Below are positions 16,372 to 49,671 of a stretch of 64,000 bases of DNA, in pieces. The number at the start of each line of letters is the position of its first letter. Position 1 is the first letter of the stretch. Source of the DNA: Ancylobacter novellus (GTDB lineage: Bacteria > Pseudomonadota > Alphaproteobacteria > Rhizobiales > Xanthobacteraceae); contig QFQD01000003.1 in NCBI GenBank assembly GCA_003241485.1, positions 47,720-111,719 on the forward strand, in the 5' to 3' direction. A program made the position numbers and the translations under genes. The notes under the pieces are model-generated. The model did no database searches, had not been told where the DNA came from, and worked only from the letters and a program-made list of their open reading frames with translations.

Positions 16372-16385
16372 TTGATGCAGGTTAA
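16372..16385. promoter_or_regulatory. Fnr/FixK-like dyad variant TTGAT-GCAG-GTTAA (followed by AG)
   Basis: Intergenic. Its centre is about 79 nt upstream of the DUF2934 ATG, which heads a same-strand string DUF2934 / phosphorylase / CBS-BON / membrane protein. Member of the recurrent motif set. Confidence 0.5.
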
Positions 16386-16680
16386 AGATGGGCTCGGGCT
16401 CATCCAGCCGATGGCCTACCAAGCCTGACGCCGGATGCGAGGTCCAGCTTCGATGCTACCCGCTCCGGCGCGATCGGTGAGCCGACGCCGACCCCATGGG
16501 CCGCGTTCGAGGAACGTCGCCGGATCGGCGAACAGCGAATTCTGTACGCCTTGAACTACTTGATGCCGCTCTCGGATTCCGGCACATGGCATCTTGCCAC
16601 CAATATCGCCTGGCCGGCTCCGAAGGCCGCCGGTTCGATGGCGGGATCATGCGAATGACGAACTCGAGGATGAGGCGCTA

Positions 16681-17907
16681 TCAGATCAGAGGCATGATCG
16701 TTCCAGCCGCCGCCAGCAGTACGACCACAATCCAGGGCGGTGCTTTCCAGACGGTGAGCAGAAGAAACCCTGCCAGCGCCGCCACGAAATCGCGCGGTAC
16801 GAAGACCGCGCTCGTCCAGACCGGGCTATATAGCGCCGCGCCGAGAATGCCGACGACCGCGGCGTTCGCCCCTCGCATGGCGGCCTGCGCCGTGGGGCGC
16901 AGGCGCAGGGCATCCCAGAACGGTAGCATGCCATAGACCAGCAGCAGGCCCGGCAGGAACACCGCGACGAGCGCGATCATGGCTCCCACAAGGCCGTTCG
17001 GCGCCGGTCCCATGACGGCGCCGAGATAAGCCGCGAAGGTGAATAGCGGTCCGGGAAGGGCCTGGGCCAGGCCGTATCCGGCGAGGAAGGCCTCGTCGCT
17101 GACCCATCCCGGCGTCACCACCTCCGCCTGAAGTAGCGGCAGGACAACATGGCCGCCGCCGAACACGAGGGCGCCCGCCCGGTAGAAGGCATCGAAAAGC
17201 GCAAGCCCCTGATGGCCTGTCGCGGCCGCCGAGACGGGCAGAAGCACGAAGCATGCCGCAAACAGCGCGAGCATCACCGCCCCCCGGCGACGGGACACCG
17301 GGAAACTCAGGTGACCGGCGAGCGCGGGCGCTTCTGCGCGGCAGAGCCAGAGGCCGGTGGTGGCGCCAAGCGCGATCGCGCCAATCTGGCCGAACGAACC
17401 ACCGATGAATATGACGACAGCAATGGCCGCCAGCGCGATGGCTGTACGCTCGCGATCGGGCGTCAGAGTCTTCGCCATGCCCCAGATTGCCTGGGCGACG
17501 ATGGCGACCGCCACGAGCTTCAGCCCATGCAGGAAGCCCTCGGCCAGCGGTCCGGTGAAAGCGGTCGCACCAAGCGCTAAGGTGAAGAGGATGATCGCGG
17601 ACGGAAGGGTGAAAGCGAGCCAGGCGGCGAGCCCGCCGAGGAGGCCTCCGCCGCGCAGGACGCCGAGCGCGAATCTGACCTGGCTGGAGGCGGGTCCTGG
17701 CAAGAACTGGCAGAGCGCGACAAGATCGGCGTAGCCGGCCTCATCGATCCACTTCCGGCCCAGCACGAGTTCATCGCGGAAATAGCCGAGATGGGCGATC
17801 GGTCCGCCGAAGGAGATGAGGCCCAGCTTGAGAAAGGCGCGGAACACTTCGGATGGCGAACCATGCTTCTGCGCGGGAACCTGCGCGCGATCATCGGGAA
17901 TGCCCAT
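16681..17907 (-). CDS. chrA: Chromate transporter (CHR family)
   Basis: 408 aa. FLKLGLISFGGPIAHLGYFRDELV, with a duplicated CHR domain and a second GGHVVLPLL motif. Its start overlaps the upstream ATPase stop by 17 nt. Confidence 0.88.
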   Translation of the reverse strand: MGIPDDRAQVPAQKHGSPSEVFRAFLKLGLISFGGPIAHLGYFRDELVLGRKWIDEAGYADLVALCQFLPGPASSQVRFALGVLRGGGLLGGLAAWLAFTLPSAIILFTLALGATAFTGPLAEGFLHGLKLVAVAIVAQAIWGMAKTLTPDRERTAIALAAIAVVIFIGGSFGQIGAIALGATTGLWLCRAEAPALAGHLSFPVSRRRGAVMLALFAACFVLLPVSAAATGHQGLALFDAFYRAGALVFGGGHVVLPLLQAEVVTPGWVSDEAFLAGYGLAQALPGPLFTFAAYLGAVMGPAPNGLVGAMIALVAVFLPGLLLVYGMLPFWDALRLRPTAQAAMRGANAAVVGILGAALYSPVWTSAVFVPRDFVAALAGFLLLTVWKAPPWIVVVLLAAAGTIMPLI

Positions 17908-19768
17908 CGGTGCCTCCGGTCGGGATTGGCCTCAGCGCCCTGAGCGCGTTCAGGATGACGGCGACGTCGATCAGCTCTTGCGTCAGCGCGCCTTGCACCG
18001 GCGGAAGGAACCCGAGGGCGGCGACGGCCATCGCCATGACCGACAGGCCGATCCCCGCAATGACGCTCTGTAGTGCGATCCGCTTCGTGCGATGGGCCAG
18101 GAAGAGCGCGTCGGCGAGCCGGTCGAGCTGGTCGACAAGGAGAACAATGTCGGCCGCTTCCGAGGACGCTGCCGAACCCCGGGCGCCCATCGCGACGCCG
18201 ACATCCGCCGCGGCGAGCGCAGGCGAGTCATTGACCCCGTCGCCGACCATCATCACCGGGGCGGTAGCGCGCTCACGAAGGACCATGTCGACCTTGGCGC
18301 CCGGGCCCAACTCGCCCTGCGCGGCGTCCAGTTGCAGCCGTCGTCCGACATCCGCAACGACATCGCTACGATCGCCGGAGGCAAGGACGATGCGCCGGAT
18401 GCCGGATTTGCGGAACGCGGCAAGCACGCCTGCAGCATCGGGGCGGATAGGGTCGGCGAGCGTGATGATGCCCGCCACCGCGCCATCCACGGCGACAGCG
18501 ACCACCACGGTTCCCTGAGCGAGTCCGATCCCCAGTTCGCGCGGATTACCCGCGGCGCTTCGGGAACGGACGAAGTCGCTGCCGCCGACCACGATGCGCC
18601 GGCCCTCGACGATGCCTTCGATGCCGGTTCCTGCCGTCTCCTGAACCTCGGACGGGCTTGACAGAGAAAGCCCGCGCTGATGCGCCGCTGTCGCCAGCGC
18701 CTCCGCTGTGACATGGGCCGAGGCCTGGTCGAGCGAGGCGGCAAGCCGCAGGATCTCGTCCTGGTCCCAGCCGCCCGCGATGCGGATCCCGGTGACGGCG
18801 GCCCGGCCGAGGGTCAGCGTTCCGGTCTTGTCGAGAATGGCCGTGCGCACCCTGGCGAGCGCTTCGAGCGCCCCGCCATTCTTGATGAGGACGCCCCGCG
18901 ACGCTGCGCGCGACATGCCTGAGATGATCGCCACGGGAACGGCCAGGATGAGCGGACAGGGGGTGGCGACGACCAGAACCGCCAGGGCGCGCAGCCGGTC
19001 GCCGCTCAGCCCCCACGCCGCGCCGGCGAGAACGACCGTGAAGAGCAGGAACCAGATCGCGTAGCGGTCCGCCATGCGCACCATCGGCGCCTTACTCTCC
19101 TGCGCCGTCTCGACGAGGCGGACGATGTTGGCGTAGGTGCTTTCCGCCGCCTCGCGGGCCACGACGAGATCGAAGGCGTCGCCCGCGCAGGTGGAACCGC
19201 TCAGGACCTCCTCGTCGGCGAGCCTGCGCACCGGTAGCGCCTCCCCGGTGAGGGCCGCCTCGTCGAGCAGCGCTTCCCCCTCCGCGACCGTCCCGTCGGC
19301 CGGGATCACTTCGCCATGGCGCACCAGAATGCGATCGCCGGGGCGAAGGCTTTCGATCGTCACCTCCTCGAGACGATTGCCGGCATGGCGCATGGCGGTC
19401 CGCGAGACGCGCCCGAGCAGCGCCGTCATCTCCCGCCGTGCCCGGCCCTCGGCGAAACTCTCCAGCTGCTGGCCGCCGGCATACATCAGCGCCACGACAT
19501 TGCCGGCGAGCGGTTCGCCGAAGGCGAGCGCCGTCGACATTGACAGGCCGGCGACGATATCGAGCCCGACCTCGCCGCGGCGGAGGGAAGAGAAGATCTC
19601 GATGACGAGCGCCGCCAGAACGGGGAACGTCCCTGCGAACCAGAGGCGTCCGGCCCAGGCGCCACTATCCGTCAGCAGGGCGATCCCGCCGCCCGCCAGC
19701 CCCAAAAGTGCGATGACGACCAGCAGCAGTCTGGCGCGGGCCTTGGCCAGGCCGGTGAATAGACCCAC
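17891..19768 (-). CDS. P1B-type ATPase with a TPCP transmembrane motif (P1B-5-like), no N-terminal HMA domain and no C-terminal hemerythrin domain
   Basis: 625 aa. VVATPCPLILAVP, DKTGTLT, GDGVNDSPALAAADVG. GTG start. Confidence 0.88.
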   Translation of the reverse strand: MGLFTGLAKARARLLLVVIALLGLAGGGIALLTDSGAWAGRLWFAGTFPVLAALVIEIFSSLRRGEVGLDIVAGLSMSTALAFGEPLAGNVVALMYAGGQQLESFAEGRARREMTALLGRVSRTAMRHAGNRLEEVTIESLRPGDRILVRHGEVIPADGTVAEGEALLDEAALTGEALPVRRLADEEVLSGSTCAGDAFDLVVAREAAESTYANIVRLVETAQESKAPMVRMADRYAIWFLLFTVVLAGAAWGLSGDRLRALAVLVVATPCPLILAVPVAIISGMSRAASRGVLIKNGGALEALARVRTAILDKTGTLTLGRAAVTGIRIAGGWDQDEILRLAASLDQASAHVTAEALATAAHQRGLSLSSPSEVQETAGTGIEGIVEGRRIVVGGSDFVRSRSAAGNPRELGIGLAQGTVVVAVAVDGAVAGIITLADPIRPDAAGVLAAFRKSGIRRIVLASGDRSDVVADVGRRLQLDAAQGELGPGAKVDMVLRERATAPVMMVGDGVNDSPALAAADVGVAMGARGSAASSEAADIVLLVDQLDRLADALFLAHRTKRIALQSVIAGIGLSVMAMAVAALGFLPPVQGALTQELIDVAVILNALRALRPIPTGGTDGHSR

Positions 19769-20007
19769 GTCGAACCTCTGGATGGCTGGTGGCCGACAGC
19801 CATGGTGACGCCGGGCGGATCTTTTTCTTTAGAATGCCTCTAATCCATACACCACTCGAAAATCGCGAACAACAGAGCCGGCGAGACCGGTGATCAACAG
19901 GCTCACGATTCCCTTCTTCATCTTCAAGACAGCCCATACCAAGAAAGTTTTTCAGTCCGCTGTTCGCATAACGTCCAGTCCGTCCAATGCTGCGGTCAGT
20001 AGAGTCT

Positions 20008-20021
20008 TTGATATTGATTAA
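20008..20021. promoter_or_regulatory. Fnr/FixK-like dyad variant TTGAT-ATTG-ATTAA
   Basis: Lies in the divergent intergenic region between the P1B-5-like ATPase (start 19768) and the DASS transporter (ORF start 20046). It is only about 31 nt from the 20046 ATG, so the true DASS start may be further downstream. Confidence 0.45.
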
Positions 20022-20045
20022 GGTCTCCGGTGTTCCCCGCTGCCA

Positions 20046-21707: not shown

Positions 21708-23498
21708 ATGAAACTGACGGACATTTCCGCACCCGACTATTTTCACAAAGTCGTGGACTGCCAGTGGGCCTGCCCGGCGCATACGCCGGTTCCCGAATAC
21801 ATCCGTCTGATCGCGCAGGGCCGCTATGCCGACGCCTACATGATCAATTGGAGATCCAACGTCTTCCCGGGAATCCTCGGGCGCACCTGCGACCGGCCCT
21901 GCGAGCCGGCCTGCCGGCGCGGCCGGGTCGAAGAGGCGCCGGTGGCGATCTGCCGGCTCAAGCGGGTTGCGGCCGATTTCAAGGACGACATCCGCGACCG
22001 CCTTCCCAGGCCGGCTGCCCGCACGAACGGCAAGCGCGTCGCGCTGGTGGGCGCAGGCCCCGCCTCATTGACGGTCGCGCGCGATCTTGCGCCGCTCGGC
22101 TACGACTGCACCCTCTTCGACGGCAACCCCCAGGCCGGCGGCATGATACGCAGCCAGATCCCGAAATTCCGGCTGCCCGATTCCGTGATCGACGAGGAGT
22201 GCGGCTATATCCTCGATCTCGGCGTCACCTTTCATTCCGACAAGCGCATCGACAGCCTCAAGGCGCTGCTTTCGGAGGGTTATGATGCCATATTCATCGG
22301 CTCGGGCGCCCCGCGCGGCAGGGACCTCGATATCCCTGGCCGGAAAGAGGCTGCCACCGCAATTCACATCGGGCTCGATTGGCTGGCTTCGGTGTCGTTC
22401 GGGCACGTAACGAAGACGGAGCGGCGCGTCGTCGTCATCGGCGGCGGCAACACCGCCATGGATTGCGGCCGCTCTGCCCGGCGCCTTGGCGGTGAGGACG
22501 TCATCGTCGTCGTCCGCGAGGGCTTCGACGACATGCCGGCGGCAAGTTGGGAGAAGGAAGCGCTCCTCTATGAGGGAATCATCATCTCGGCCGGTCTCGC
22601 GCCCAAAGCATTCATCAACGAAGGTGGTCGCCTAACGGGCCTGCTGGTCGAACCGGTCACGACCGTCACCGAAAACGGCCGCTCCACGATCGTACCGACG
22701 GGCGAGCCGCCGTGGCAGATCGACTGCGACGAGGTCGTGATCGCAATCGGTCAGCAGAACGCCTTTCCATGGATCGAACGCGATATCGGAATCGACTTCG
22801 ACAAATGGGACATGCCGGTAGTAGCGGAAAAGACGTTCGCCTCGACCCATCCCAAGGTGTTCTTCGGGGGCGACGCGGCGCGGGGGCCGAAAAACATTAT
22901 CAGCGCCGTCGCCCACGGCCACGACGCGGCGCTATCAATCCACCGCCTGCTGTCCGGCGAGGACATCGGCGAACGCCTGTTACCCCATGTGCAGATCGAG
23001 AGCGAAAAGCTGGGCATCCACGAGTGGGCCTATGACAGCGAGGTCACGCTCGACCGCCGCTTCCCGGTGCCCTCGCGCGACAACAAGACCGCGCTGAAGG
23101 ACATCCGCACGGAGGTGGAACTCGGCTATGACCCGGCCCTGGCGCTCGCCGAGGCGGATCGCTGCCTCAACTGCGATGTCGAAACAGTGTTCAGCGGGCC
23201 GTCCTGCATCGAATGCGATTCCTGCGTCGACATCTGCCCGATGGACTGCATCACCTTCACCGAGAACGGCGAGGAGGAGGAACTGCGCCGGCGGCTACGG
23301 GTGCCCGCGCTGAACCCGCTCCAGGAGCTCTATGTCGCGGACGGGTTGAAGACCGGACGCGTCATGGTGAAGGACGAGGACCTTTGCCTGCATTGCGGCA
23401 TGTGCGCCGAGCGCTGCCCGACTGGCGCCTGGAGCATGCAGAAATACTTCATCGACATGACCCATGCAGGTGATACATGCCCGACACGCTCCCGATAA
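21708..23498 (+). CDS. GltD-like NAD(P)H/FAD oxidoreductase fused to a C-terminal 2x[4Fe-4S] ferredoxin domain
   Basis: N-terminal Cys cluster (CQWACPAHTPVPEY, CDRPCEPAC) and two Rossmann GxGxxG motifs (VGAGPASL, VIGGGNTAMDC). C-terminal CLNCD..CIECDSCVDICP and CLHCGMCAERCP. AGGAG RBS. Confidence 0.85.
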   Translation: MKLTDISAPDYFHKVVDCQWACPAHTPVPEYIRLIAQGRYADAYMINWRSNVFPGILGRTCDRPCEPACRRGRVEEAPVAICRLKRVAADFKDDIRDRLPRPAARTNGKRVALVGAGPASLTVARDLAPLGYDCTLFDGNPQAGGMIRSQIPKFRLPDSVIDEECGYILDLGVTFHSDKRIDSLKALLSEGYDAIFIGSGAPRGRDLDIPGRKEAATAIHIGLDWLASVSFGHVTKTERRVVVIGGGNTAMDCGRSARRLGGEDVIVVVREGFDDMPAASWEKEALLYEGIIISAGLAPKAFINEGGRLTGLLVEPVTTVTENGRSTIVPTGEPPWQIDCDEVVIAIGQQNAFPWIERDIGIDFDKWDMPVVAEKTFASTHPKVFFGGDAARGPKNIISAVAHGHDAALSIHRLLSGEDIGERLLPHVQIESEKLGIHEWAYDSEVTLDRRFPVPSRDNKTALKDIRTEVELGYDPALALAEADRCLNCDVETVFSGPSCIECDSCVDICPMDCITFTENGEEEELRRRLRVPALNPLQELYVADGLKTGRVMVKDEDLCLHCGMCAERCPTGAWSMQKYFIDMTHAGDTCPTRSR

Positions 23499-25321
23499 GT
23501 CGCGTCAACGACTTCGTCGTCCGCTTCGCCAACACCAATGGATCGGGGTCCGCAAGCGCCAACGAGTTGTTCGCGCGGGCGGTGCTGCGAATGGGCGTGC
23601 CTGTCGCGGCGCGCAACATATTCCCATCGAACATCCAGGGCCTTCCGACCTGGTACGAGGTCCGCGTCTGCGAGGCCGGCTATCTCGGCGCACGCGGCGG
23701 AACCGATCTCGTGGTGGCGATGAACCCCCAGACCTTCGCCAAGGACCAGGCCGGGCTCGAACCGGGCGGATACCTGATCTACGATTCGACGCGGCCCATT
23801 CAGAAATCCCAGTTCCGCGAGGATATAACCGTCCTCGGCGCTCCGCTGGGCGCGATCTGCAACAGGGAATACAGCGACCCGCGGGAGCGGCAGCTTTTCA
23901 AGAACGTCATGTATATCGGTGTTCTCGCCGCGGTGCTCGAGATGGATACCGACGAGATCGATACGCTCATCGGCCGGCAATTCGCGGGCAAGGAGCGCCT
24001 CATAGAGGCCAATGTCCGGGCTTTTCATATCGGCCGTGACTGGGCGGTCGACAATCTCCCCTGCCCCATTGGCCTGCGCGTCCGGCGCGCGGACGCCGTC
24101 GGCGGGCGCATCTTCATCGACGGCAATTCCGCGACGGCGCTCGGCGCGGTGTTCGGCGGCGCCACGGTCTGCGCGTGGTATCCGATCACGCCCTCGACCG
24201 GGATCGCCGACGCCTTCTCCGCCTATTGCGCGCGGTTCCGGATCGATCCCGAGACCGGGAGGAAGCGCTACGCCATCATCCAGACCGAGGACGAGCTCGC
24301 CTCCAGCGGCATGGTGATCGGCGCCGCCTGGAACGGCGCGCGGGCTTTTGCACCGACCTCCGGGCCCGGCATCTCGCTGATGCAGGAGTTTCTCGGGCTA
24401 GCCTATTTCGCCGAAATCCCAGCCGTGATCATGGATGTGCAGCGCGGCGGCCCCTCGACGGGCATGCCGACACGTACGCAGCAGTCCGACATCTTGCTCG
24501 CGGCTTATGCCTCGCACGGCGACACCAAACATGTCCTGCTCTTCCCGGAGGGTCCGGCGGAGGCCTTCGAATTCAGCGCCCTCTCCTTCGATCTCGCCGA
24601 CCGGCTGCAGACGCCGGTCCTGCTCATGCTCGATCTCGACATCGGCATGAACCATCGGCTCTGCCCGCCGCTGCGCTGGGATGACGACCGGGTCTACGAC
24701 CGCGGCAAGGTGATGACCGCGGCCGATCTCGACGCCGGCAAGGACTTCGGCCGCTATCTCGACGTCGACGGCGACGGCATTCCCTACCGCACCTACCCTG
24801 GCACTCATCCGCGCAAGGGCTCCTTCTTCACCCGCGGCACGACCCGGGACCGCTATGCACGCTATACCGAGGAGGGCGGTCCTTATGTCGACAACATGGA
24901 ACGGTTGCTGAAGAAGTTCGAGACCGCAAAGGCTCTCGTTCCCGGGCCCGTGGTCACCCTGGCCAGCACCCCCTCGCGCTACGGGGTGATCTATTTCGGC
25001 TCGACGTCGCCCGCCATGGAGGAGGCGGCCGATCTGCTGGAGGCCGAGGGCCATGCCCTCGACCGGATGCGGGTCAGGGCGTTTCCCTTCAACCGTGACG
25101 TCGACGCTTTCCTGCGCTCACACGAGGCGGTGTTCGTGGTCGAGCAGAACCGCGATGCCCAGCTTCGCACGCTGATCATCACCGAATGCGGTGTCGATCC
25201 CGCCAAGGTGACGCCAATTCTGCACTATGACGGAACGCCGATCACCGCCCGATTCATCGCCGCCGCCATCGCCGCCCGTCTCGGCGAAGCCGCGAAACAG
25301 AGTGAGAGGGCGATCGCATGA
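23477..25321 (+). CDS. korA: 2-oxoacid:ferredoxin (acceptor) oxidoreductase, alpha subunit
   Basis: 614 aa with a KorA-like N-terminal gamma-type domain and alpha domain (GNSATALGAVFGGATVCAWYPITPST). It overlaps the upstream gene by 22 nt. Confidence 0.85.
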   Translation: MPDTLPISRVNDFVVRFANTNGSGSASANELFARAVLRMGVPVAARNIFPSNIQGLPTWYEVRVCEAGYLGARGGTDLVVAMNPQTFAKDQAGLEPGGYLIYDSTRPIQKSQFREDITVLGAPLGAICNREYSDPRERQLFKNVMYIGVLAAVLEMDTDEIDTLIGRQFAGKERLIEANVRAFHIGRDWAVDNLPCPIGLRVRRADAVGGRIFIDGNSATALGAVFGGATVCAWYPITPSTGIADAFSAYCARFRIDPETGRKRYAIIQTEDELASSGMVIGAAWNGARAFAPTSGPGISLMQEFLGLAYFAEIPAVIMDVQRGGPSTGMPTRTQQSDILLAAYASHGDTKHVLLFPEGPAEAFEFSALSFDLADRLQTPVLLMLDLDIGMNHRLCPPLRWDDDRVYDRGKVMTAADLDAGKDFGRYLDVDGDGIPYRTYPGTHPRKGSFFTRGTTRDRYARYTEEGGPYVDNMERLLKKFETAKALVPGPVVTLASTPSRYGVIYFGSTSPAMEEAADLLEAEGHALDRMRVRAFPFNRDVDAFLRSHEAVFVVEQNRDAQLRTLIITECGVDPAKVTPILHYDGTPITARFIAAAIAARLGEAAKQSERAIA

Positions 25322-26741: not shown

Positions 26742-26755
26742 TTGATTTGAGTTAA
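26742..26755. promoter_or_regulatory. Fnr/FixK-like dyad variant TTGAT-TTGA-GTTAA (followed by AG)
   Basis: Intergenic, centre about 176 nt upstream of the ftsH ATG. Confidence 0.45.
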
Positions 26756-26924
26756 AGTTTGCGCCTTTCCGGACGCGCATCGTCGTCGCCGAGTTAGGCT
26801 CGGACCGCACCATCGTCGGCGAGAGCTGTGTCCGCCCTGACGCTCAAAGAAGCGTCAATCGGTTATATGCCTTGGCTGATGATTTCAACCCGATTGGCCC
26901 GTTACCGACGAGAGAAGTACGGGA

Positions 26925-34005: not shown

Positions 34006-34019
34006 TTAATCGAGATTAA
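34006..34019. promoter_or_regulatory. Fnr/FixK-like dyad variant TTAAT-CGAG-ATTAA (followed by AG)
   Basis: Intergenic, centre about 132 nt upstream of the small Cys/His-rich ORF and the CopB-like ATPase. Confidence 0.4.
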
Positions 34020-34144
34020 AGATGCCTGACCAGACCATCGGCTAACTTTAGACAATCACGAAGTGGGAGGGCATGAGCGGCATGAGGCGAAAGCGCCCTG
34101 CATGTAACCCTCTATCGTCATGCCCCCAAGCAGGAGCCATCGGA

Positions 34145-38114: not shown

Positions 38115-38321
38115 AGCGGCGCGCTGACGGATTTCGGCGACTTGAAATCGCGATTCAGCGAGAGAGTAGAAGTGACGAACTGGAGAACCAAAGATGTCCG
38201 ACTGAATTGGATCGCCCCTCCGCTGAACGCCCGTCTACGTCGGCAGGCGGTTACTCTTTCGTAGCGTAATTGCAACGGTCGATACGTCAGCATGCGACAG
38301 ATCTCATGACAGGAAGTTCAG

Positions 38322-39092: not shown

Positions 39093-39097
39093 TTGTT

Positions 39098-39993: not shown

Positions 39994-40002
39994 GCTCAGG
40001 GC

Positions 40003-40955: not shown

Positions 40956-41330
40956 CTAGCAGCCATGTCGGTGGCGGTGGGGATGCTCGTCGTCACGCTG
41001 GTTATCGATCGGTTGACCCGAAGCGGCTATCCCGGTCACATACTTTTCGGGAGCGGCCTCGAACACCTCCCGGTTTTCGCGGGACGCGAAATAATAGGCA
41101 CGGTCCCGATACACCGAAGATATCGAGGAGCTGCCGCTGACGGGCTGTCGGCTTACGGGATCAATGACCGATCGCGGACCGGCGCCAACGTCGGATGGTG
41201 GGCCATCTTGCGCGGTTCCGTGGCTGTGGTGTGCCGATCGGCCCATTCCGCGGCCGCCCATGCGGGTCATGAAGAAAAATGCGGCTATCGCAAGTACGAT
41301 CCAGATCCAGTTCTGGAAGCTCCAATCCAT
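40956..41330 (-). CDS. YHS-domain (TRASH-type) protein with an N-terminal TM helix and His-rich segments
   Basis: AGGAGG RBS before the ATG at 41330. TM helix NWIWIVLAIAAFFFM and YHS core VIDPVSRQPV...YRDRAYYFASRENREVFEAAPEKY. C-terminal HPHRHRHGC. TAG stop. Confidence 0.75.
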   Translation of the reverse strand: MDWSFQNWIWIVLAIAAFFFMTRMGGRGMGRSAHHSHGTAQDGPPSDVGAGPRSVIDPVSRQPVSGSSSISSVYRDRAYYFASRENREVFEAAPEKYVTGIAASGQPIDNQRDDEHPHRHRHGC

Positions 41331-41384: not shown

Positions 41385-41398
41385 TTGCGGCAGGTTAA
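41385..41398. promoter_or_regulatory. Fnr/FixK-like dyad variant TTGCG-GCAG-GTTAA (followed by AG; weaker left half)
   Basis: Intergenic, centre about 61 nt upstream of the YHS-protein ATG (minus strand). Confidence 0.35.
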
Positions 41399-41753
41399 AG
41401 ATCGCCACTTGCGCCGCGCGAGGCGCCGAAACAAATCGCAGCGCGCCCTGAGGGATCTTGAATCCGCGGTCTCGCGGTTGTCTCGGCGCTCCCGATCCGT
41501 GATGCGATCTTGCATCATAGGGAGCCTGCAGGCGCGGCCAGCACCGATGCGTCTAGCGCAAATCGGGGATCGGGATCGTCCATATGCGCTGGCATTGAGC
41601 TATTGTGGAGTAGATATTCTTAGTAGTGGAGATGCATCCGTTCCATTTGAACGACACGCTGCGGATTCATCCCCTTGGCCGCATAGTCACAAATGGCAGA
41701 GCCCCGTTCATCGACATGACCGACGCGATCGATCGATCACGTCCAGATCGTGA

Positions 41754-42218
41754 TTACTTGAGTCGCTCTTCAAATTCCGCCTTGATGTCCTGCGTCCGAT
41801 CCCGCAGGCGAATTGTCAGGTTGATCCGAAACGGTCCGCTACCGAGCATTTCAAAGTAGTTGCCATAAGTTTCGGCACCGGCGATCTGCATCGGACTAAG
41901 GGTCTTCTGGCTCCCGGCAAGGCCAATTTCGGAGACGCGAGCCGAGACGTCTGCGCCGGTGAGGCGGAGCCCGGTCCTGACGTCGAAGAGTGCAGCAACG
42001 ATATGGAATTCCCCGCGGGCGGCGGGCCGCCCGCCATGCATGGAATTCTCCGTGTGGCCTGGCGGATGACCGCGGATCAATTCCGCCGGCAGGATTCCCA
42101 TATAGATCTGGACATCGCCGACGACCCTGCTGTCGCCGCTAGGGGCCGCTGCCGCGGTATGGGCCAATCCAGAAAGCAGAAGGAGGCTCAGCGCCACTCC
42201 GACACTCCTTGCTCGCAT
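41754..42218 (-). CDS. Secreted protein of unknown function (possibly a P19/cupredoxin-like periplasmic metal-binding fold)
   Basis: GGGAGGG RBS. Signal peptide MRARSVGVALSLLLLSGLAHTAAA. Beta-rich mature part with HPPGHTENSMHGG and HIVAALFD. The family assignment is tentative. Confidence 0.6.
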   Translation of the reverse strand: MRARSVGVALSLLLLSGLAHTAAAAPSGDSRVVGDVQIYMGILPAELIRGHPPGHTENSMHGGRPAARGEFHIVAALFDVRTGLRLTGADVSARVSEIGLAGSQKTLSPMQIAGAETYGNYFEMLGSGPFRINLTIRLRDRTQDIKAEFEERLK

Positions 42219-42375: not shown

Positions 42376-42389
42376 TTGATCTGCGTTAA
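42376..42389. promoter_or_regulatory. Fnr/FixK-like dyad variant TTGAT-CTGC-GTTAA (followed by AG)
   Basis: Lies in the divergent intergenic region between the secreted protein (start 42218) and the ECF sigma factor (start 42488). Confidence 0.5.
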
Positions 42390-42487
42390 AGAACGCGGGT
42401 GGGCGTGGCCGTAACGTCAAATCCTGTCTGGTTCTGGTAGGGACAGTTCAAGAAGACGTCTCAACCATTGAAAGAGTGGGCTGGGCG

Positions 42488-43168
42488 ATGACCGATAGGC
42501 ATGAAGCGGATGCCCGGCATTCGGAAGATGATACGGAAGGACAGGAAGCCGCAAAGCCGGCGGACGCGGCTGTACGACGAGCGCTTGTTGAGGCACGCGA
42601 AGAATTTCTGGTCTTTCTGCATCATCGGGTAGGCAGCCGGGACGAGGCCGAAGAGTTGTTGCAGCAGTTCTCGCTTCGGGCGCTTGAGCGCGCTTGGCAG
42701 TTGCGGGACGTCCGCACGGTTCGCGGTTGGCTCGGGCGCATTCTGGCGACCACCCTCGTCGATCACCAGCGACGCACCATCAGACGCCGTCGCCAGGAGG
42801 TCGAGATGGACCAGCCGGATGTGGAGAGCCTGCCGATCGAGCCGGATCGAGAAACTGACGAGGCCGTCTGCAACTGCTTGCATAAGCTGTTACCGACGCT
42901 CAAGCCCGAGTATGCTGACGTCGTCTGGCGCTCCGACATTCTTGGCGAGCCGCGTGATCGGATCGCCGCCAGCCTCGGCACCACGCTCAACAACATCGCG
43001 GTCAGGCTCCACAGGGGGCGTCAGGCGCTCCGCAAGAGGCTCGAGGAAATGTGCCTGACCTGTCCGGTCCACGGCTTTCTCGATTGCCGATGCGATGAGG
43101 CCGAGCGCATTCGCCAACGAGCTCGCGGTCTCGCCGACGAAACCAAGTCGCCGCCCCGGGACGGATGA
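42488..43168 (+). CDS. ECF-type sigma-70 family factor with a Cys-rich C-terminal extension (CorE-like architecture)
   Basis: The sigma-2 region (EELLQQFSLRALE..WLGRILATTLVDHQRR) and sigma-4 region (YADVVWRSDILGEPRDRIAASLGTTLNNIAVRLHRGRQALRKRL) are followed by CLTCPVHGFLDCRCD. An additional CNC sits before sigma-4. GAAAGAG RBS before ATG 42488. Confidence 0.8.
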   Translation: MTDRHEADARHSEDDTEGQEAAKPADAAVRRALVEAREEFLVFLHHRVGSRDEAEELLQQFSLRALERAWQLRDVRTVRGWLGRILATTLVDHQRRTIRRRRQEVEMDQPDVESLPIEPDRETDEAVCNCLHKLLPTLKPEYADVVWRSDILGEPRDRIAASLGTTLNNIAVRLHRGRQALRKRLEEMCLTCPVHGFLDCRCDEAERIRQRARGLADETKSPPRDG

Positions 43169-43183: not shown

Positions 43184-43393
43184 ATGAATGCTGTCGCGCC
43201 CGGCTGCATCGCAACGGGCACGCTTGATGCCATGTCTGAAGACACTCTTGCAAAGATCGAGGGGCAAATCCCTGTCGGGTGGCAGGGCAATGCCGACGAG
43301 GTCGCACGCATCGTCCAGTTCCTGGTGAGCGGGGAGGCCACGTTCGTCACGGGCTCGAAGGTCACCGCCAATGGCGGCCTGTTGATGGCATAG
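43184..43393 (+). pseudogene. C-terminal remnant of a short-chain dehydrogenase/reductase (acetoacetyl-CoA or 3-oxoacyl-ACP reductase-like)
   Basis: NAVAPGCIATG...IPVGWQGNADEVARIVQFLVSGEATFVTGSKVTANGGLLM matches only the last ~70 residues of SDRs. An in-frame TGA lies 2 codons upstream and there is no Rossmann part. Confidence 0.65.
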
Positions 43394-43421: not shown

Positions 43422-44609
43422 ATGGCACAGTCGAACGTCGTGCTCTGCGCCCCGGTGCGGACGGCCATCGGCACGTATGGCGGAACGCTGAAGGACATAG
43501 CGGCACCCGATCTCGGGGCGGTGGTGATCAGGGAAATATTGTCGCGCGCGAAGATCGCAGATGACGCGATCGGCACCGTGGTGATGGGGCAGGTCGTCCA
43601 GGCCGGCGCCAAGATGAACCCCGCGCGGCAGGCGGCCATCAAGGCCGGCATTCCGGTCGGCGTTCCGGCGATGACCATAAACCGGGTGTGTGGCTCGGGT
43701 GCACAAGCGATCGCGACCGCTGCGCAGGAGATCATGCTCGGCCTCGCCGAGAGTGCCATCGCCGGTGGCATGGAGAACATGGACCAATCGCCCTACCTGA
43801 TGTCCGGCGGACGGTGGGGCTACCGCATGGGCGATGCCCAGATCTACGACAGCATGCTGCGCGACGGCCTCAACGACGCCTTTTCCGATCACCATTCGGG
43901 CTTGGTGACCGAGGATCTCGTCAGCAAGTTCCAGGTGACGCGCGAGGCGCAGGACCGCTGGGCGGAGCGGACGCAGCAACGCTTTGGCGCGGCTCAGGCG
44001 GCCGGCAAGTTCAATGCCGAGATCGCGCCGATCGAAATCCCCGGCCGCAAGGGACCGACGATCTTCGACAAAGACGAGCACAACCGCCCGGACGCGACGC
44101 TGGAGTCACTGGCCAAGTTAAGGCCGGCCTTCCGCAAGGATGGGACCATTACCGCCGGCAATGCACCGGGCCTCAACAGTGGCGCCGCGGGGGTGATCGT
44201 CGCGGATGCCCGCTGGGCCGAGAAGCACGGCCTGACGCCGATAGCCCGTCTTGCGGCGTTTGGGGTCGGCGCGGTCGAACCCGGCCTGTTCGGTCTCGGG
44301 CCGGTTCCCGCGGTTCGGCAGGCCCTGGATCGCGCTGGCTGGAAGCTCGGCGACGTCGAGCGCGTGGAGATCAACGAGGCCTTCGCGGCGATTGTCCTGG
44401 CGCTCATCGGGGAGCTCGGTCTCCCGGAGGACATCGTCAATGTCGAGGGCGGCGCCATCGCGCATGGCCATCCGATTGGTGCGACAGGGGCCGTGCTGAC
44501 GACCCGCCTCCTTCACGCGATGCAGCGGGACGGTCTCCGCCGCGGATTGGTGACGCTGTGCATCGGGGGCGGTCAGGGGGTCGCGTTGGCGCTTGAGGCT
44601 CTCCACTGA
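43422..44609 (+). CDS. Acetyl-CoA C-acetyltransferase (thiolase II)
   Basis: 395 aa. NRVCGSGAQAI (active-site Cys), NEAFAA, GGAIAHGHPIGATG, CIGGGQGVA. Confidence 0.92.
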   Translation: MAQSNVVLCAPVRTAIGTYGGTLKDIAAPDLGAVVIREILSRAKIADDAIGTVVMGQVVQAGAKMNPARQAAIKAGIPVGVPAMTINRVCGSGAQAIATAAQEIMLGLAESAIAGGMENMDQSPYLMSGGRWGYRMGDAQIYDSMLRDGLNDAFSDHHSGLVTEDLVSKFQVTREAQDRWAERTQQRFGAAQAAGKFNAEIAPIEIPGRKGPTIFDKDEHNRPDATLESLAKLRPAFRKDGTITAGNAPGLNSGAAGVIVADARWAEKHGLTPIARLAAFGVGAVEPGLFGLGPVPAVRQALDRAGWKLGDVERVEINEAFAAIVLALIGELGLPEDIVNVEGGAIAHGHPIGATGAVLTTRLLHAMQRDGLRRGLVTLCIGGGQGVALALEALH

Positions 44610-45237: not shown

Positions 45238-47073
45238 ATGATGGAGATGGTGATGCCCGAAGCAAGATCGGATTCCGCGCTGATTGACCAGCCGAAGGCG
45301 TCGCCGGGGCGGCAAATTGCTGATCGGCGGGATGTCGTGGCGCCCTCTCTGGTGAAAAGCTTGGAACCGGCCATTGTGGCGAATCCAGCTGAACCGACGA
45401 TCAACATCAATGATCCCTTCGCGTATCAGCGGGATGTCTTCGAACGGTCGATTCTGTTTTGGGATACGCTGCGCCAGCGCGCCAACAACATGATCGCGCA
45501 CGAGCGGGCCGGGAAACCGCCGCTTCTCGACTTCGACTATGAGACGCTGGTCGATGCCCGGCACTTCGAGCGGCCCGTCAACTACGCCCTCCTGCGGATT
45601 ACCCGGATCGGCGACGATTGCATCGAGGATTGTGTCGATCCGGCGAAGCCGCCCGTCGTCATCCTCGACCCCAGAGCCGGCCATGGCCCCGGCATCGGCG
45701 GCTTCAAGCGCGACTCCGAGGTTGGGATTGCCATGCACGAGGGCTATCCGATCTATTTCGTTTCCTTCTTTCCTGAACCCTGCGCGGGTCAGACCCTGGC
45801 CGATGTGCTGCATGCGCTCGGCCGCTTCGTCGAGGACGTGGTGAAACGCCACCCCGACAAGCCTCCTGTACTCTATGGCAATTGTCAGGCCGGCTGGGCT
45901 ATCACCTTGCTCTCGGCGGATTGCGAAGGCCTAGTCGGGCCAGCCGTGCTCAACGGCTCTCCACTCTCCTATTGGGCGGGAGAATCGGGCGTCAATCCGA
46001 TGCGGATCGCCGGCGGGCTGCTCGGAGGCGTCTGGGCCACCCACCTCCTTGCCGATCTCAATGACGGGCGCTTGGACGGAGCGTGGCTCGCCTTCAATTT
46101 CGAGAGCCTTCAGCCCGAAGCCGTCTGGAAGAAATACGCCAACCTGTTCACGCATGTTGACACGGAACGCGAGCGCTTCCTCGAGTTCGAGCGGTGGTGG
46201 AATGGCTTCTACTTCCTCAGCCGGGAAGAGATCGTCGCCATCGTCGAGAACCTCTTCATCGGCAATCGCCTTGAGGAGGGCAAGATGCGGATCTGCGACG
46301 GGTGCGTCGCCGACCTTCGGCGCATTCGTAATCCGCTGGTGATCTTCGCCTCCTATGGCGACAACATCACCCCGCCGCACCAGGCGCTCGGCTGGATTCC
46401 GGTGGTGTACAAGGATACCGACGATCTCAAGGCCGCCGGTCAGCGCATCGTCTACCTGACGAACCCTCATGCCGGCCATCTTGGCATTTTCGTGTCTGCC
46501 AAGGTGGCGAGGTTCGAACATCGCGCGATCCTCGAAAGCCTTGACGAGATCGAGACTCTCGCTCCCGGCCTCTATGAGATGAAGATCGACAATCCGAGCG
46601 GAGATCCAGACTGCCGCAAGTCGGAATACTCGGTCCTGTTCGAAGAGCGGCGTGTCGAAAATCTACAGTTCGAAACGCCCCGCGCGGAGTTCGAGCAGGT
46701 TCGGCACCTATCGGAGGTGAACGAGCAATTCTACAAGACCATGGTCAGCCCGTTCGTTCGCGGGGCCTCCAATCCCTGGACGGCGGCAACGCTCGAATGG
46801 CTCCATCCCATGCGCACGAGCCGCTACCTGCTGTCGGAATCCTTTAGTCCATGGATGCATGGCGTCGCTGCGCTCGCGCGCCTGATCGAGCAGCGCCGCC
46901 AGCCGCTGCCCGAGGACGATGGCAATCTGCGTCGTGAGCGGGAGGCGATTGACCGTGTCTCCGAGGCGATTGAAAACGGCCGCAGACAACGCGACACGGT
47001 GGAAGAGCGGGTCTTTCAGGCGCTTTACGATCGGCCCGCCTCGGCGCGGCCATCGACGCCACCGGCGGTATAG
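45238..47073 (+). CDS. DUF3141-like alpha/beta-hydrolase-fold protein (a family sometimes annotated as PHA-synthase-like)
   Basis: 611 aa. N-terminal YQRDVFERSILFWDTLRQRANNMIAHE and ERPVNYALLRI match my recollection of DUF3141. GNCQAGW is a nucleophile-elbow-like motif. The start is ambiguous among four ATGs at 45238-45253. Confidence 0.7.
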   Translation: MMEMVMPEARSDSALIDQPKASPGRQIADRRDVVAPSLVKSLEPAIVANPAEPTININDPFAYQRDVFERSILFWDTLRQRANNMIAHERAGKPPLLDFDYETLVDARHFERPVNYALLRITRIGDDCIEDCVDPAKPPVVILDPRAGHGPGIGGFKRDSEVGIAMHEGYPIYFVSFFPEPCAGQTLADVLHALGRFVEDVVKRHPDKPPVLYGNCQAGWAITLLSADCEGLVGPAVLNGSPLSYWAGESGVNPMRIAGGLLGGVWATHLLADLNDGRLDGAWLAFNFESLQPEAVWKKYANLFTHVDTERERFLEFERWWNGFYFLSREEIVAIVENLFIGNRLEEGKMRICDGCVADLRRIRNPLVIFASYGDNITPPHQALGWIPVVYKDTDDLKAAGQRIVYLTNPHAGHLGIFVSAKVARFEHRAILESLDEIETLAPGLYEMKIDNPSGDPDCRKSEYSVLFEERRVENLQFETPRAEFEQVRHLSEVNEQFYKTMVSPFVRGASNPWTAATLEWLHPMRTSRYLLSESFSPWMHGVAALARLIEQRRQPLPEDDGNLRREREAIDRVSEAIENGRRQRDTVEERVFQALYDRPASARPSTPPAV

Positions 47074-47469: not shown

Positions 47470-48231
47470 TCAGCGGATCCAGGACATCACAAGTTGTGGA
47501 TCAAGACCTGCTACGTCGACGAGTTTGTCCGGATCGAGGATTCGGAGCCGTCGATAGTGGAATTCCAAGATTCTATCCCTTCGCAGATCCCTCAGCACCC
47601 GATTGACATGGACGAAGGTCAGACCCGTTGCATCTCCGATATCTTCTTGGGTCAGCGGAAGATGCATTTCCTCAATATGACTGCCCGGCCATTGCGCGCG
47701 GTAGCGGACGAACAGCTTGAGCAGCAGGTGCGCAACGCGCTCGCGCGCTGAATGCCGACCAATGCTGGTAAGGCGATCGTAGGCCAAGGTGCAATCCCGC
47801 GCGACGAGCCGGGCAAGCCGCAAACCGAACTCGGGCTGCTGGTTGACAATCGGCTGTAGGGCCTTATGCGGAATTGTGCTGACGACGATCTCTGTCAGAG
47901 CTTGCGCGCCATATGTCATCATCGCACCGCTGCCCGGATGGAAGCCGAGCACGGCGCCCGGCAATGCGAAGTGCAATATCTGCCGCCGTCCGTCTTCCAA
48001 TAAATTGTAAAGAATGACCCATCCTTCGAGAAGATTGTATATCGTATCGCACGGCTCACCGAGGCTGAAGAGATCCTGGCCAACCTTGTAGTGTCTATCG
48101 GCAGATGTGTAATTTGCGATCACACATGGCGAGTCCGACTGGCAATCCCCGCACAAGCCCCGGCTAAGCCGGGCGAAGCAAGCTTCACAACCCGGTAGCT
48201 GCTTCGATGTGCCACTCCCCGGTATCGGCAT
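47470..48231 (-). CDS. Crp/Fnr-family transcriptional regulator with an N-terminal Cys cluster (FnrN-type candidate O2 sensor)
   Basis: Strong GGAGAGGAA RBS 7 nt before ATG 48231. N-terminal C-x2-C-x9-C-x2-C-x5-C, a cNMP-like beta-roll, and the C-terminal HTH LTQEDIGDATGLTFVHVNRVLRDL. Confidence 0.85.
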   Translation of the reverse strand: MPIPGSGTSKQLPGCEACFARLSRGLCGDCQSDSPCVIANYTSADRHYKVGQDLFSLGEPCDTIYNLLEGWVILYNLLEDGRRQILHFALPGAVLGFHPGSGAMMTYGAQALTEIVVSTIPHKALQPIVNQQPEFGLRLARLVARDCTLAYDRLTSIGRHSARERVAHLLLKLFVRYRAQWPGSHIEEMHLPLTQEDIGDATGLTFVHVNRVLRDLRRDRILEFHYRRLRILDPDKLVDVAGLDPQLVMSWIR

Positions 48232-48572: not shown

Positions 48573-48938
48573 CTAGGTCGAGCGCCGAGGAACTGGGGGA
48601 TCGAGTCCGGGGATGACTGAGCCTGGGTCGGCTTCTTCGGACGACATCCCCGCTGAGGAGTGCTCGAAGGCATTGGCCGGGAGGCTGTTCGGCAGGGGAG
48701 CCAAGGTCGTTGAGCAGGCCGCAGGGCAGAAGCATGCACTCATCGCACAGCAGGGCTTGTCCGACTTTGGACATTCTGGGCAATCATCGCATGCCACACT
48801 GTGAGGCCGAAGATCCGAAGCGCTCAGGACCACCATGGACGCATCGGCTGTGATCACCGCTGCCTCGGCCATGCTCCGCCCGTTCAGCGTCGCGAAGATC
48901 GCCGTGGCAAAGATGAGCATCGCGAGGAACCGCAGCAT
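48573..48938 (-). CDS. Secreted Cys-rich protein of unknown function (9 Cys in 28 residues)
   Basis: GGAAAGAGG RBS. Signal peptide MLRFLAMLIFATAIFATLNGRSMAEA. Core CDDCPECPKSDKPCCAMSACFCPAAC, then a Pro/Ser-rich tail. TAG stop. I recognise no family. Confidence 0.55.
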   Translation of the reverse strand: MLRFLAMLIFATAIFATLNGRSMAEAAVITADASMVVLSASDLRPHSVACDDCPECPKSDKPCCAMSACFCPAACSTTLAPLPNSLPANAFEHSSAGMSSEEADPGSVIPGLDPPVPRRST

Positions 48939-49036: not shown

Positions 49037-49050
49037 TTGATTGAAAACAA
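49037..49050. promoter_or_regulatory. Fnr/FixK-like dyad TTGAT-TGAA-AACAA
   Basis: Lies in the divergent intergenic region, centre about 105 nt upstream of the Cys-rich protein ATG (minus strand). Confidence 0.45.
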
Positions 49051-49159
49051 GTAGCGGGTGGTGCGCATCGACCGCCCGGAATCCTGTGCGCGGGCGGGTT
49101 TCCGGCCGCCCGCCCGACAATTGGCGGAAGATGTGGTGCCGTGCCGCCCGCGCGAAAGT

Positions 49160-49173
49160 TTGATCGAGTTTAA
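49160..49173. promoter_or_regulatory. Fnr/FixK-like dyad variant TTGAT-CGAG-TTTAA (followed by AG)
   Basis: Centre about 69 nt upstream of the NifX-like ATG at 49236. It shares the CGAG spacer with the site at 34006. Confidence 0.5.
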
Positions 49174-49235
49174 AGTCCGATATGTTTGCCGGCCGCATAA
49201 TTCGATGGCGTCGCTGGTGTTCAAACGAGGAACCG

Positions 49236-49583
49236 ATGGCCAGGTCCGCTTGCGTACCGCCTCCGCCGGCAAATCGCATTGCGATCATTGTGATGAAATC
49301 CGACGCGGGCCCTGCACTCTGTCCCTTCTTCGGCAAGTGCGATGGAATATGGATCGTCGATACGCTCACGGGCGCGACCGAGTTCCGCGCCAACCCCCAG
49401 CGCACGTCAACCGCGCTATGCGATCTCATTGTCGCGGCCAGACCGGGTCGCTTGGTTTGCGGTTTTATCGGCGAGCCGGAGAAACAGAAACTTTGTGCTG
49501 CTGGGATCGATGTGAGGCTCGGCTCTTGCGCGAGGACGATTCAGGAGCTTGTGGCCTGTTTTCCCGCTCTCGTTGCCGCATGA
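49236..49583 (+). CDS. NifB/NifX-family (dinitrogenase FeMo-cofactor-binding fold) single-domain protein
   Basis: GAGGAA RBS. RIAIIVMKSDAGPALCPFFGKCDGIWIVD matches the N-terminal pattern of this fold. 115 aa. No nif genes are nearby. Confidence 0.6.
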   Translation: MARSACVPPPPANRIAIIVMKSDAGPALCPFFGKCDGIWIVDTLTGATEFRANPQRTSTALCDLIVAARPGRLVCGFIGEPEKQKLCAAGIDVRLGSCARTIQELVACFPALVAA

Positions 49584-49657
49584 CGTCCGGTTACCGCGGG
49601 CGGGACAGGCGGCGCATTTAATTGATCCTGCTGCGTCGATCCACACCCGGCGGATGT

Positions 49658-49671
49658 TTAACCGGGATCAA
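49658..49671. promoter_or_regulatory. Fnr/FixK-like dyad TTAAC-CGGG-ATCAA (followed by AG)
   Basis: Intergenic, centre about 158 nt upstream of the DUF2933 ATG. Confidence 0.5.

Follow-up and report, generated by a model that had tools for sequence, protein, structure and literature searches.

A 64,000-nucleotide stretch of Ancylobacter novellus DNA (GenBank assembly GCA_003241485.1, contig QFQD01000003.1, positions 47,720 to 111,719 of the forward strand; the window hereafter) carries an island of metal-handling and energy-reserve genes, the former predominating, in which a short AT-rich dyad recurs between the genes. The locus raises the question of whether this dyad is a genuine motif and, if it is, which protein reads it. 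Our analyses confirmed that the nine-site AT-rich element is a genuine repeated motif. We put the probability that its copies, the boxes, are binding sites of a dimeric activator of the Crp/Fnr family, most likely the one that the island itself encodes (Table 1), at about 0.7 on the basis of the sequence analyses described below.

A recurrent AT-rich dyad between the island genes

The core of the motif, TTGATNNNNGTTAA, has four exact matches in the window and was matched in none of 100 dinucleotide-preserving shuffles. Allowing up to two mismatches to TTGATNNNNGTTAAAG gave eight sites against 0.95 expected, all of them among the nine coordinates that a first-pass annotation of this DNA had listed, while a third mismatch (18 sites against 12.6 expected) added background only. 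We also counted all pairs of 4-mers with gaps of 0 to 12 nt in the intergenic DNA of the window, without the motif of the first-pass annotation as input. TTAA-N6-TCAA and TGAT-N5-TTAA were the top-ranked dyads, each seen 6 times against ∼0.1 expected (0.11 for TTAA-N6-TCAA), the expectation being computed from intergenic-only composition, and the top eight dyads were all facets of one motif. A scan with the canonical FNR box, TTGATN4ATCAA, at up to one mismatch returned two window matches against 1.04 expected, so the regulon would escape a standard search for FNR sites.

A position matrix trained solely on sites outside the window assigned scores of 22.6 to 29.7 to seven sites (16372, 20008, 26742, 34006, 42376, 49160 and 49658), where 0.15 sites scoring at least 14 are expected per simulated window. 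Below these seven strong sites there is a wide gap in score, followed by 49037, 9177 and 41385 (11.8, 10.1 and 9.8, respectively). All seven strong sites lie between genes, in a window of which 19% is intergenic (0.188^7 = 8e-6). For this count the genes were called with a codon-usage model, and the small ones (DUF2934-like, YHS, Cys-rich and the start of the NifX-like gene) were placed by hand. From the box centers it is 61 to 185 nt to the likely start codons of the first genes; the start of the divergent ATPase gene is farther away, at 246 nt.

The motif extends well beyond the window. With the regulator as bait, we collected 94 other loci, 14 genomic ones from Xanthobacter, Prosthecomicrobium, Ancylobacter, Reyranella, Roseomonas, Terripilifer and Aestuariivirga and 80 metagenomic ones, which together with the window amount to ∼1.06 Mb. 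When duplicate contexts were removed, the same motif again came first in the dyad count over all loci: TGATC-N4-TTAAA was found 72 times against 0.56 expected, and TTAAC-N4-ATCAA, TTAAT-N4-ATCAA and TTGAT-N4-ATCAA were found 50, 35 and 31 times. The 160 non-redundant sites gave the consensus a-T-(c/g)-(t/c)-TTGATC-(g/t)-A-G-(g/a)-TTAA-A-G-(t/a). Plasmid pC of Ancylobacter polymorphus, which was outside the training set, carries nine boxes in the 30 kb around a regulator homologue, and by the RefSeq annotation all nine are intergenic. In a nine-locus alignment of the DUF2933 promoter the invariant columns lie solely inside the box, and no extended repeat or similarity was found beyond ∼20 bp around the sites.

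These results bear out what the first-pass annotation had claimed of the element. It had described a recurrent AT-rich dyad seen between genes, a description on which the shuffles, the dyad ranking and the outside-trained matrix all agree, and it had proposed de novo motif discovery and a shuffled control as checks; unbiased dyad counting ranked the same motif first, and the motif is not as frequent in shuffled sequence. It had likened the left half and the spacing to the Fnr/FixK anaerobox and had given the right half as mostly GTTAA or ATTAA. Indeed, the motif drawn from the collected sites shares C6, G9 and the 3′ A-G flank with the published alphaproteobacterial FnrN/FixK consensus, TTGANCNNGATCAANG (PMC4999443), and differs from it in one half-site, which usually has T for C. 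The conserved 3′ AAAG that it had noted is seen as A in 70% and G in 70% at positions 15 and 16 of 100 non-redundant heterotypic sites, and its estimate of 60 to 180 nt to the operon heads is close to the distances given above.

The boxes also have a fixed relation to a promoter-like signal. When numbering starts at the box's first base, positions 37, 38 and 42 of 99 oriented sites are T in 35%, A in 48% and T in 46%, and this holds on both flanks, with an AT-rich peak on either side of the box. The TAnnnT signal, which resembles a −10 element at +37 to +42, therefore places the box center at about −41.5, the class II position, and we predict from the sequences a class II activation geometry with starts ∼41.5 bp from the box center. 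A box of the form TT(G/A)A(T/C)-N4-(G/A)T(T/C)AA, flanked by CT and AG and centered ∼41.5 bp upstream of the transcription start, would let the bound dimer overlap the −35 region and recruit RNA polymerase to a promoter that has a usable −10 and no good −35; boxes between divergent genes could serve both directions. Both box orientations are used. Each target keeps the same half toward its gene, and this half varies from one target to another: the G-containing half (TTGAT) is distal in 9/10 cases at the gene for the extracytoplasmic function (ECF) sigma factor, and the A-containing half (TTAA) is distal in 9/12 at DUF2933. A fixed orientation, with the A-type half always proximal to the gene, was considered and ruled out, since −10-like signals stand on both sides and orientation varies by target. 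The plus-strand bias of the window boxes (7/8) follows gene direction and is not significant alone.

It is very improbable that the boxes are anything other than activator sites, be it a repressor operator, a promoter element that the ECF sigma factor recognizes, a repeat or recombination element, or an accident of composition. Such an accident might be suspected, as the sites are AT-rich within GC-rich DNA and intergenic regions are AT-richer, but intergenic composition predicts ∼0.1 sites where 6 were observed. The ECF sigma factor gene lies in the island itself (42476-43168), but a 5-4-5 dyad at a fixed spacing from a −10 fits a class II site, not an ECF −35/−10 pair or a recombination site, and the sites show no extended repeat. 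An ECF-sigma promoter, a repeat element and the end of an insertion sequence were each ruled out as candidates, the similarity ending by ∼20 bp.

The island's Crp/Fnr protein and the two classes of box

The regulator encoded in the island combines an N-terminal beta-roll of the cNMP-binding type (PF00027, 2.4e-13) with a C-terminal Crp-type helix-turn-helix (HTH_Crp_2, PF13545, 6.2e-17; PF00325, 2.5e-6), the architecture of the Crp/Fnr family. The first-pass annotation had named it a Crp/Fnr regulator with an N-terminal Cys cluster, and both the Pfam domains and a CxxC-x8-C pattern uphold this. Its nearest solved structures are FNR and FixK2 (E ∼3e-20), with alignment over the full length at ∼25 to 30% identity to FNR/FixK. 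The protein missed every NCBIfam equivalog cut-off by far (FnrL 102.9 vs. 300, FixK 102.4 vs. 300, Fnr 82 vs. 228), which places it in a separate subfamily that has yet to be named; more than 2000 homologues were found, and residues were counted across 70 unique ones. The start is ambiguous: many database homologues are called at 305 amino acids (aa), the length given by the upstream alternative start, and the extension (…QASYLE…ANTI.DAERN…) is conserved as amino-acid sequence in two of the collected loci (L013, L019).

The N-terminal cysteines of the window protein are Cys15, 18, 27, 30 and 36. C15-x2-C18-x8-C27 is nearly invariant in the Cys-bearing subgroup of homologues, and Cys30 and Cys36 are extra cysteines of the window clade. 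In FNR proper, four Cys residues ligate the [4Fe-4S] cluster, three at the N terminus and Cys122. The family splits into the CxxC-x8-C subgroup and a Cys-less subgroup (L042, L046, L049, L061, L079, L082, L090 and L096), and both retain the recognition helix described below; in both, hybrid boxes are present and a canonical one precedes the regulator's operon. This split resembles that between FnrN and FixK.

In the recognition helix, GLTFVHVNR aligns without gaps to GLTVETISR of FNR in the HMMER alignment, with Glu209 replaced by Val, Ser212 replaced by Asn and Arg213 kept. The Glu209-x-x-Ser212-Arg213 signature of FNR proper is thus absent, and Val207 stands at the Glu209 position. Among the homologues this position is Val in 60 and Ile in 9 of 70, and the His, Asn and Arg of the helix are almost invariant. 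The equivalent residue of CprK, Val192, is in contact with the T by which the dehalobox, TTAAT-N4-ATTAA, differs from the FNR box, and mutagenesis in CprK and FNR is reported to link Val to T specificity and to avoidance of FNR cross-talk (PMC2610375). The boxes vary at just this base. Apart from those upstream of the regulator, ∼90% of the boxes have T instead of C in at least one half (an A-type half), the CprK-type combination of Val207 and A-type halves. In the window, a single box, 49037, is of the TTGAT-N4-ATCAA type of FNR proper, and in each of the others one half or both read TTAA(C/T/A). Val at the Glu209 position would be expected to confer tolerance of, or preference for, T·A over C·G at half-site position 3, as in CprK and the FNR mutants. 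Regulator and box thus depart from FNR/FixK at positions that correspond to each other, which we consider the best argument available for the island regulator, and not a host FNR, as the reader of the boxes.

The distribution of the half-sites sharpens this argument. Boxes that are nearest upstream of the regulator, before the Cys-rich gene, are both-G, that is, canonical in both halves, in 30/39 non-redundant cases; all other non-redundant boxes are so in 12/145 (odds ratio 37, Fisher p = 4e-17), and 24/145 of these others, with one of the nine in the window (34006), are both-A. It is unlikely, in light of this partition, that a canonical host regulator of the FNR, FixK, FnrN or Dnr type binds the boxes and that the island protein is irrelevant to them or has other targets. 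One half is usually a perfect TTGAT, and the spacer and flanks fit the FnrN/FixK consensus, which speaks for a host regulator. FixK2 controls the orthologous operons of Bradyrhizobium, and FnrL and DnrD of Dinoroseobacter shibae use TTAAC-N4-GTCAA and TTGAC-N4-GTTAA boxes. However, the prevailing T in at least one half is not the C that Glu209 reads, the canonical boxes cluster before the operon of the regulator itself, and the boxes travel with the Val-type regulator across many genera on plasmids and islands. The DUF2933 promoter, moreover, is both-G under FixK2 but contains an A-type half in 12/12 unique cases beside a Val-type regulator.

Among the non-regulator boxes, those that pair a G-type with an A-type half are more frequent than chance would have it, at 106 against 70 expected (p = 2e-9). 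Either a balance of affinity and specificity or heterodimers could explain the excess. A heterodimer, with the island's Val-type subunit on the TTAA(C/T) half and a Glu-type FNR/FixK subunit on the TTGAT half, would also account for the conserved gene-facing halves at the ECF sigma factor and DUF2933 promoters, and Herbaspirillum provides a precedent in its proposed Fnr3-Fnr1 heterodimers and its hybrid half-site motifs (PMC5934665). We nevertheless regard it as quite improbable. With ∼25 to 30% identity to FNR/FixK, the compatibility of the dimer helices is in doubt; the both-A boxes would need homodimers; and Val may tolerate both pyrimidines, as reported for CprK.

Several observations weigh against assigning the boxes to an oxygen-responsive island activator. 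The case for the island protein as the binder is built on co-location and the analogy with CprK Val192, and the excess of mixed boxes is at odds with the symmetric sites expected for a homodimer. The high box density around regulator orthologues, 334 boxes scoring at least 14 in 1.06 Mb, or ∼1 per 3 kb against ∼1 per 430 kb expected (∼130 times chance), was obtained with a matrix trained on these same related loci, the regular-expression and dyad counts being independent of it. Boxes 16372 and 20008 have poor −10 matches. Box 7 has A at position 11, where T is invariant in all 160 collected sites, and because the change strikes this invariant T, the regulator operon of the window may receive a weaker input. 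Finally, the equivalent of Cys122 is Ser118 in the window protein and Cys in 30/70 homologues, and in roughly half of the family neither candidate fourth ligand is present or the Cys cluster is missing altogether. Iron-sulfur or oxygen sensing is uncertain on account of this Ser and of the Cys-less members; by analogy, oxygen or redox sensing by the window regulator is plausible. The likely signal would be low oxygen, as the FixK2-dependent orthologous operons suggest, sensed through a putative N-terminal Cys-ligated Fe-S cluster.

The first-pass annotation had read the island as one oxygen- or redox-responsive circuit. An island-wide Crp/Fnr regulon is supported by the sequence tests, but a single flat tier is less likely, because 49037, a box of a separate class, is the canonical box of the regulator's own operon. 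That operon probably begins with the Cys-rich gene, the direct upstream neighbor of the regulator gene on its strand, co-transcription being assumed. The circuit is thus probably two-tiered or autoregulated. Through its canonical box, the Cys-rich/regulator operon could be switched on by a host FNR/FixK or be amplified by autoregulation. The same arrangement of box classes holds for Cys-less regulators, which cannot sense oxygen themselves, and since the canonical upstream box is kept for these as well, a cascade from a host protein of the FNR/FixK type is favored; the alternative is positive autoregulation via the best-affinity site. Once made, the regulator would fan out to the P-type ATPases, chrA, the FtsH-ABC exporter, YHS, ECF sigma-thiolase-DUF3141, NifX-like, DUF2933-ICMT-LTXXQ, phosphorylase-CBS-BON and DASS-oxidoreductase genes. 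Nearly all target promoters have a TTAA(C/T) sequence in one half or both, and this may insulate the cargo from the host's Glu-type FNR/FixK. Taken to its full extent, as a portable and insulated two-tier oxygen circuit of cargo islands that plasmids and integrative and conjugative elements (ICEs) carry in Alpha- and Betaproteobacteria, with a canonical FNR box as host plug-in, an independently acquired Glu-to-Val change of the CprK type, hybrid boxes that the host FNR cannot use and possibly island-host heterodimers, the proposal is tentative.

Box-bearing genes and the surroundings of the island

The boxes and their neighboring genes are collected in Table 1. Scans with Pfam and NCBIfam upheld the gene list of the first-pass annotation, and the island genes they confirmed also include PPK2.

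Table 1. Boxes, regulator and Cys-rich gene in the window, with the genes next to each box (coordinates in the window; scores from the outside-trained matrix)
Feature	Position	Strand	Sequence	Score	Candidate −10	Remarks	Adjacent genes
Box 1	16372..16387	+	TTGATGCAGGTTAAAG	24.4		One G-type and one A-type half; exact match; center ∼80 nt from ATG at 16299	Minus-strand target operon: DUF2934-like 16096-16299, alpha-glucan phosphorylase 14234-15925, CBS+BON 13418-14092, DUF6629 12734-13411
Box 2	20008..20023	+	TTGATATTGATTAAGG	22.8		Divergent intergenic region	Plus: DASS transporter 20046/20196-21623, 2-oxoacid:ferredoxin oxidoreductase genes 21708-26373; minus: P-type ATPase 17891-19768, chrA 16681-17907 (Pfam)
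Box 3	26742..26757	+	TTGATTTGAGTTAAAG	23.4	CATCGT 26778-26783		Downstream: ftsH 26925-28808, HlyD 28830-29858, ABC-2 exporter 29791-33743 (Pfam)
Box 4	34006..34021	+	TTAATCGAGATTAAAG	29.7	TAACTT 34043-34048	Both halves A-type; best score in the window	Downstream: HMA P-type ATPase 34120/34459-36867, MFS transporter 36864-38114 (Pfam)
Box 5	41385..41400	+	TTGCGGCAGGTTAAAG	9.8		Weak; left half degenerate; 61 nt upstream of gene	Minus-strand YHS-domain gene 40956-41330
Box 6	42376..42391	+	TTGATCTGCGTTAAAG	22.6	TAACGT 42412-42417	Divergent region	Plus: ECF sigma factor 42476-43168, short-chain dehydrogenase/reductase (SDR) remnant, thiolase 43422-44609, DUF3141 45238-47073; minus: secreted protein 41754-42218
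Box 7	49037..49050	+	TTGATTGAAAACAA	11.8		Canonical-type FNR box, one mismatch; 105 nt from ATG at 48938	Cys-rich gene
Box 8	49160..49175	+	TTGATCGAGTTTAAAG	25.1	CATAAT 49196-49201	69 nt upstream of gene	NifX-like gene 49236-49583 (Pfam Nitro_FeMo-Co)
Box 9	49658..49673	+	TTAACCGGGATCAAAG	26.7			Downstream: DUF2933 49823-50095, ICMT 50124-50786, LTXXQ/CpxP-like 50853-51383 (Pfam)
Crp/Fnr-family regulator	47470..48231	-				253 aa; alternative start 48387 gives 305 aa	
Cys-rich protein, small, membrane or secreted	48573..48938	-				Open reading frame with ribosome-binding site; no Pfam family	

The core of Box 4 is identical to the dehalobox core. The two weak sites, 49037 and 41385, are supported by their conservation in relatives. 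At the place of Box 7, loci L001 to L011 have a canonical TTGATTGAAATCAA box, and canonical (both-G) boxes stand there in most other loci too; at that of Box 5, a counterpart, TTGC[C/G]GCAGGTTAAAG, precedes the YHS gene in L004 to L011, islands that are near-identical to each other. A further box-like sequence at 9177, CTGATCGACGTCAA, precedes the gene for a CopA-like HMA ATPase (9310-11988); because a gene for a MerR/CueR-type regulator (12022-12513) adjoins the CopA-like gene, we left this site out of the regulon as doubtful.

When the boxes of all loci are grouped by target, the largest cluster is that of the NifX-like gene (56 members, median distance 70 nt), the second largest that of the Cys-rich peptide with the regulator (36 members), and DUF2933 has 28. 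The ECF sigma factor, the secreted protein, CFA synthase, P-type ATPases, FtsH, YHS and DASS also recur; automatic picking of target open reading frames gave some spurious ones (clusters 9, 10 and 12), which we disregarded. The Cys-rich and NifX-like genes form a divergent pair beside the regulator in most loci and are the two most conserved targets; their products might handle a cofactor or metal for the sensor.

At the left end of the window lie genes for a phosphoketolase, a protein resembling phosphoribosyl pyrophosphate (PRPP) synthetase, MgtC/DUF4010 and the CopA-like ATPase with a MerR-type regulator, and at its right end a plasmid or ICE backbone (AbiEii, Toprim/DUF3991, DUF1419, DUF3085 and a helicase-methylase). 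Over 49049-52000 the window shares 97.5% identity with the conjugative plasmid pXAUT01 of Xanthobacter autotrophicus Py2 (CP000782.1, L095), whose genes downstream are syntenic with the right end (DUF2933-ICMT-DUF1520, a LuxR-type regulator, DUF1419, DUF3085 and helicase). This plasmid keeps boxes 49160 and 49658 and has no regulator gene beside them, and because it carries boxes without the regulator, the island looks mosaic and plasmid- or ICE-borne. In a megablast search against the PLSDB plasmids, only the right-hand part of the window was matched, by pXAUT01, and the island core had no close plasmid match.

Several other features of the window deserve mention. A 69-aa open reading frame at 43184-43393 on the plus strand matches only the C-terminal end of an SDR protein (adh_short_C2, residues 169 to 235 of 236) and is probably a truncated remnant of an acetoacetyl-CoA-reductase-like gene before the thiolase gene. 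The region 38000-40600, between PPK2 and the YHS gene, is low in GC (0.55) and contains a DDE transposase fragment (40003-40587, minus strand); it is likely a scar left by an insertion within the island. No box accompanies PPK2 in the window, and ppk2 on the Ancylobacter plasmid pC has one (L096, position 15898). In the backbone part, an AbiEii nucleotidyltransferase toxin gene and a DUF6088 gene (53416-55261, minus strand) resemble a type IV toxin-antitoxin pair. A boxless string of genes occupies 87-8777 on the plus strand (the C terminus of a HAD-ATPase, PRPP-synthetase-like, phosphoketolase, beta-CASP RNase, thymidine-phosphorylase-like and MgtC/DUF4010), and its promoter may lie upstream of the window.

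Significance and comparison with known systems

If the boxes are read by the island regulator, one uncharacterized Crp/Fnr subfamily would explain the regulation of a widespread mobile gene set, namely P-type ATPases, ChrA, the FtsH-ABC exporter, DUF2933-ICMT-LTXXQ, NifX-like, PPK2, phosphorylase and DUF3141/thiolase, which conjugative plasmids and islands carry in Xanthobacter, Ancylobacter, Rhizobium, Agrobacterium and numerous metagenomic bacteria. Co-induction of these genes, probably under low oxygen, would give a functional context to several domains of unknown function. A natural switch of specificity by a single residue and a single base (Glu to Val; C to T) could insulate a transferred regulon from host paralogues, with a bearing on how regulons function after transfer and on the design of orthogonal FNR-type parts. 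Were the two-tier circuit real, it would represent a natural form of orthogonal promoter wiring, by which a large regulon can pass from host to host. No new principle is involved, as FNR-type island regulons, paralogue cascades and the Val determinant have all been documented. Our literature search found no description of this regulator subfamily, of a Val-type helix in Proteobacteria or of the pairing of hybrid cargo boxes with canonical regulator boxes on mobile elements.

The Val-type helix has a counterpart in CprK of Desulfitobacterium, which shares with the island Val in the helix, T at half-site position 3, the 4-bp spacer and activation of the class II type. CprK, however, is a Firmicute protein that senses chlorophenols and binds symmetric boxes with two A-type halves, whereas the island boxes are mostly mixed, and it is only distantly similar to the island regulator (E = 4e-8 vs. 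3e-20 for FNR).

Cascades in which one Crp/Fnr paralogue activates the gene of another, with hybrid half-sites as proposed for the island, are known from D. shibae and from Herbaspirillum seropedicae, where Fnr3 acts on Fnr1 (PMC5398030, PMC5934665). In D. shibae, TTGAC-N4-GTTAA and TTAAC-N4-GTCAA boxes work bidirectionally at −39.5/−41.5 within an FnrL-to-Dnr cascade (PMC5398030). These systems differ from the island in that they are chromosomal regulons for respiration and denitrification, have a Glu-type helix as far as reported, and do not form a self-contained mobile island.

The target genes point to the FixK2 regulon of Bradyrhizobium diazoefficiens. There, bsl7992 (DUF2933)-bll7991 (ICMT)-bll7990, orthologous to the Box 9 operon, is FixK2-dependent under microoxia, as are bll7988-7986 (ABC ATPase-permease-HlyD), a CBS protein and phaC2, with canonical or near-canonical boxes; in this regulon the boxes lie 59 to 143 nt upstream (PMC9104804). 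FixK2 has a Glu-x-x-Ser-Arg helix and no Fe-S cluster, is controlled by FixLJ and acts on chromosomal genes, whereas the island has its own regulator on one mobile element.

The closest layout is that of the lxa locus of Burkholderia cenocepacia, for which the accessible text of Sass et al. 2013 (PMC3721108) describes ∼50 genes induced by low oxygen, 17 intergenic FNR-like motifs and an internal FNR-like regulator; in the window, nine boxes likewise extend over 16.3-49.7 kb with the regulator inside, at 47470-48231. According to the same paper, lxa resembles the island in encoding an ATP-dependent Zn protease, storage-polymer synthesis and transport or membrane functions. The paper gives the lxa motif as TGA-N6-TCA, canonical in both halves and thus unlike the island boxes, and the function of lxa as persistence without oxygen, which for the island is suggested by analogy only. 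The lxa locus is betaproteobacterial, chromosomal and rich in universal stress proteins, whereas the island is plasmid- or ICE-borne, dominated by metal-handling genes and, in the window, without such proteins. Every ingredient of the proposal has a precedent, and with the lxa locus and the FixK2 regulon as the closest ones, the idea of such a regulon is not new.

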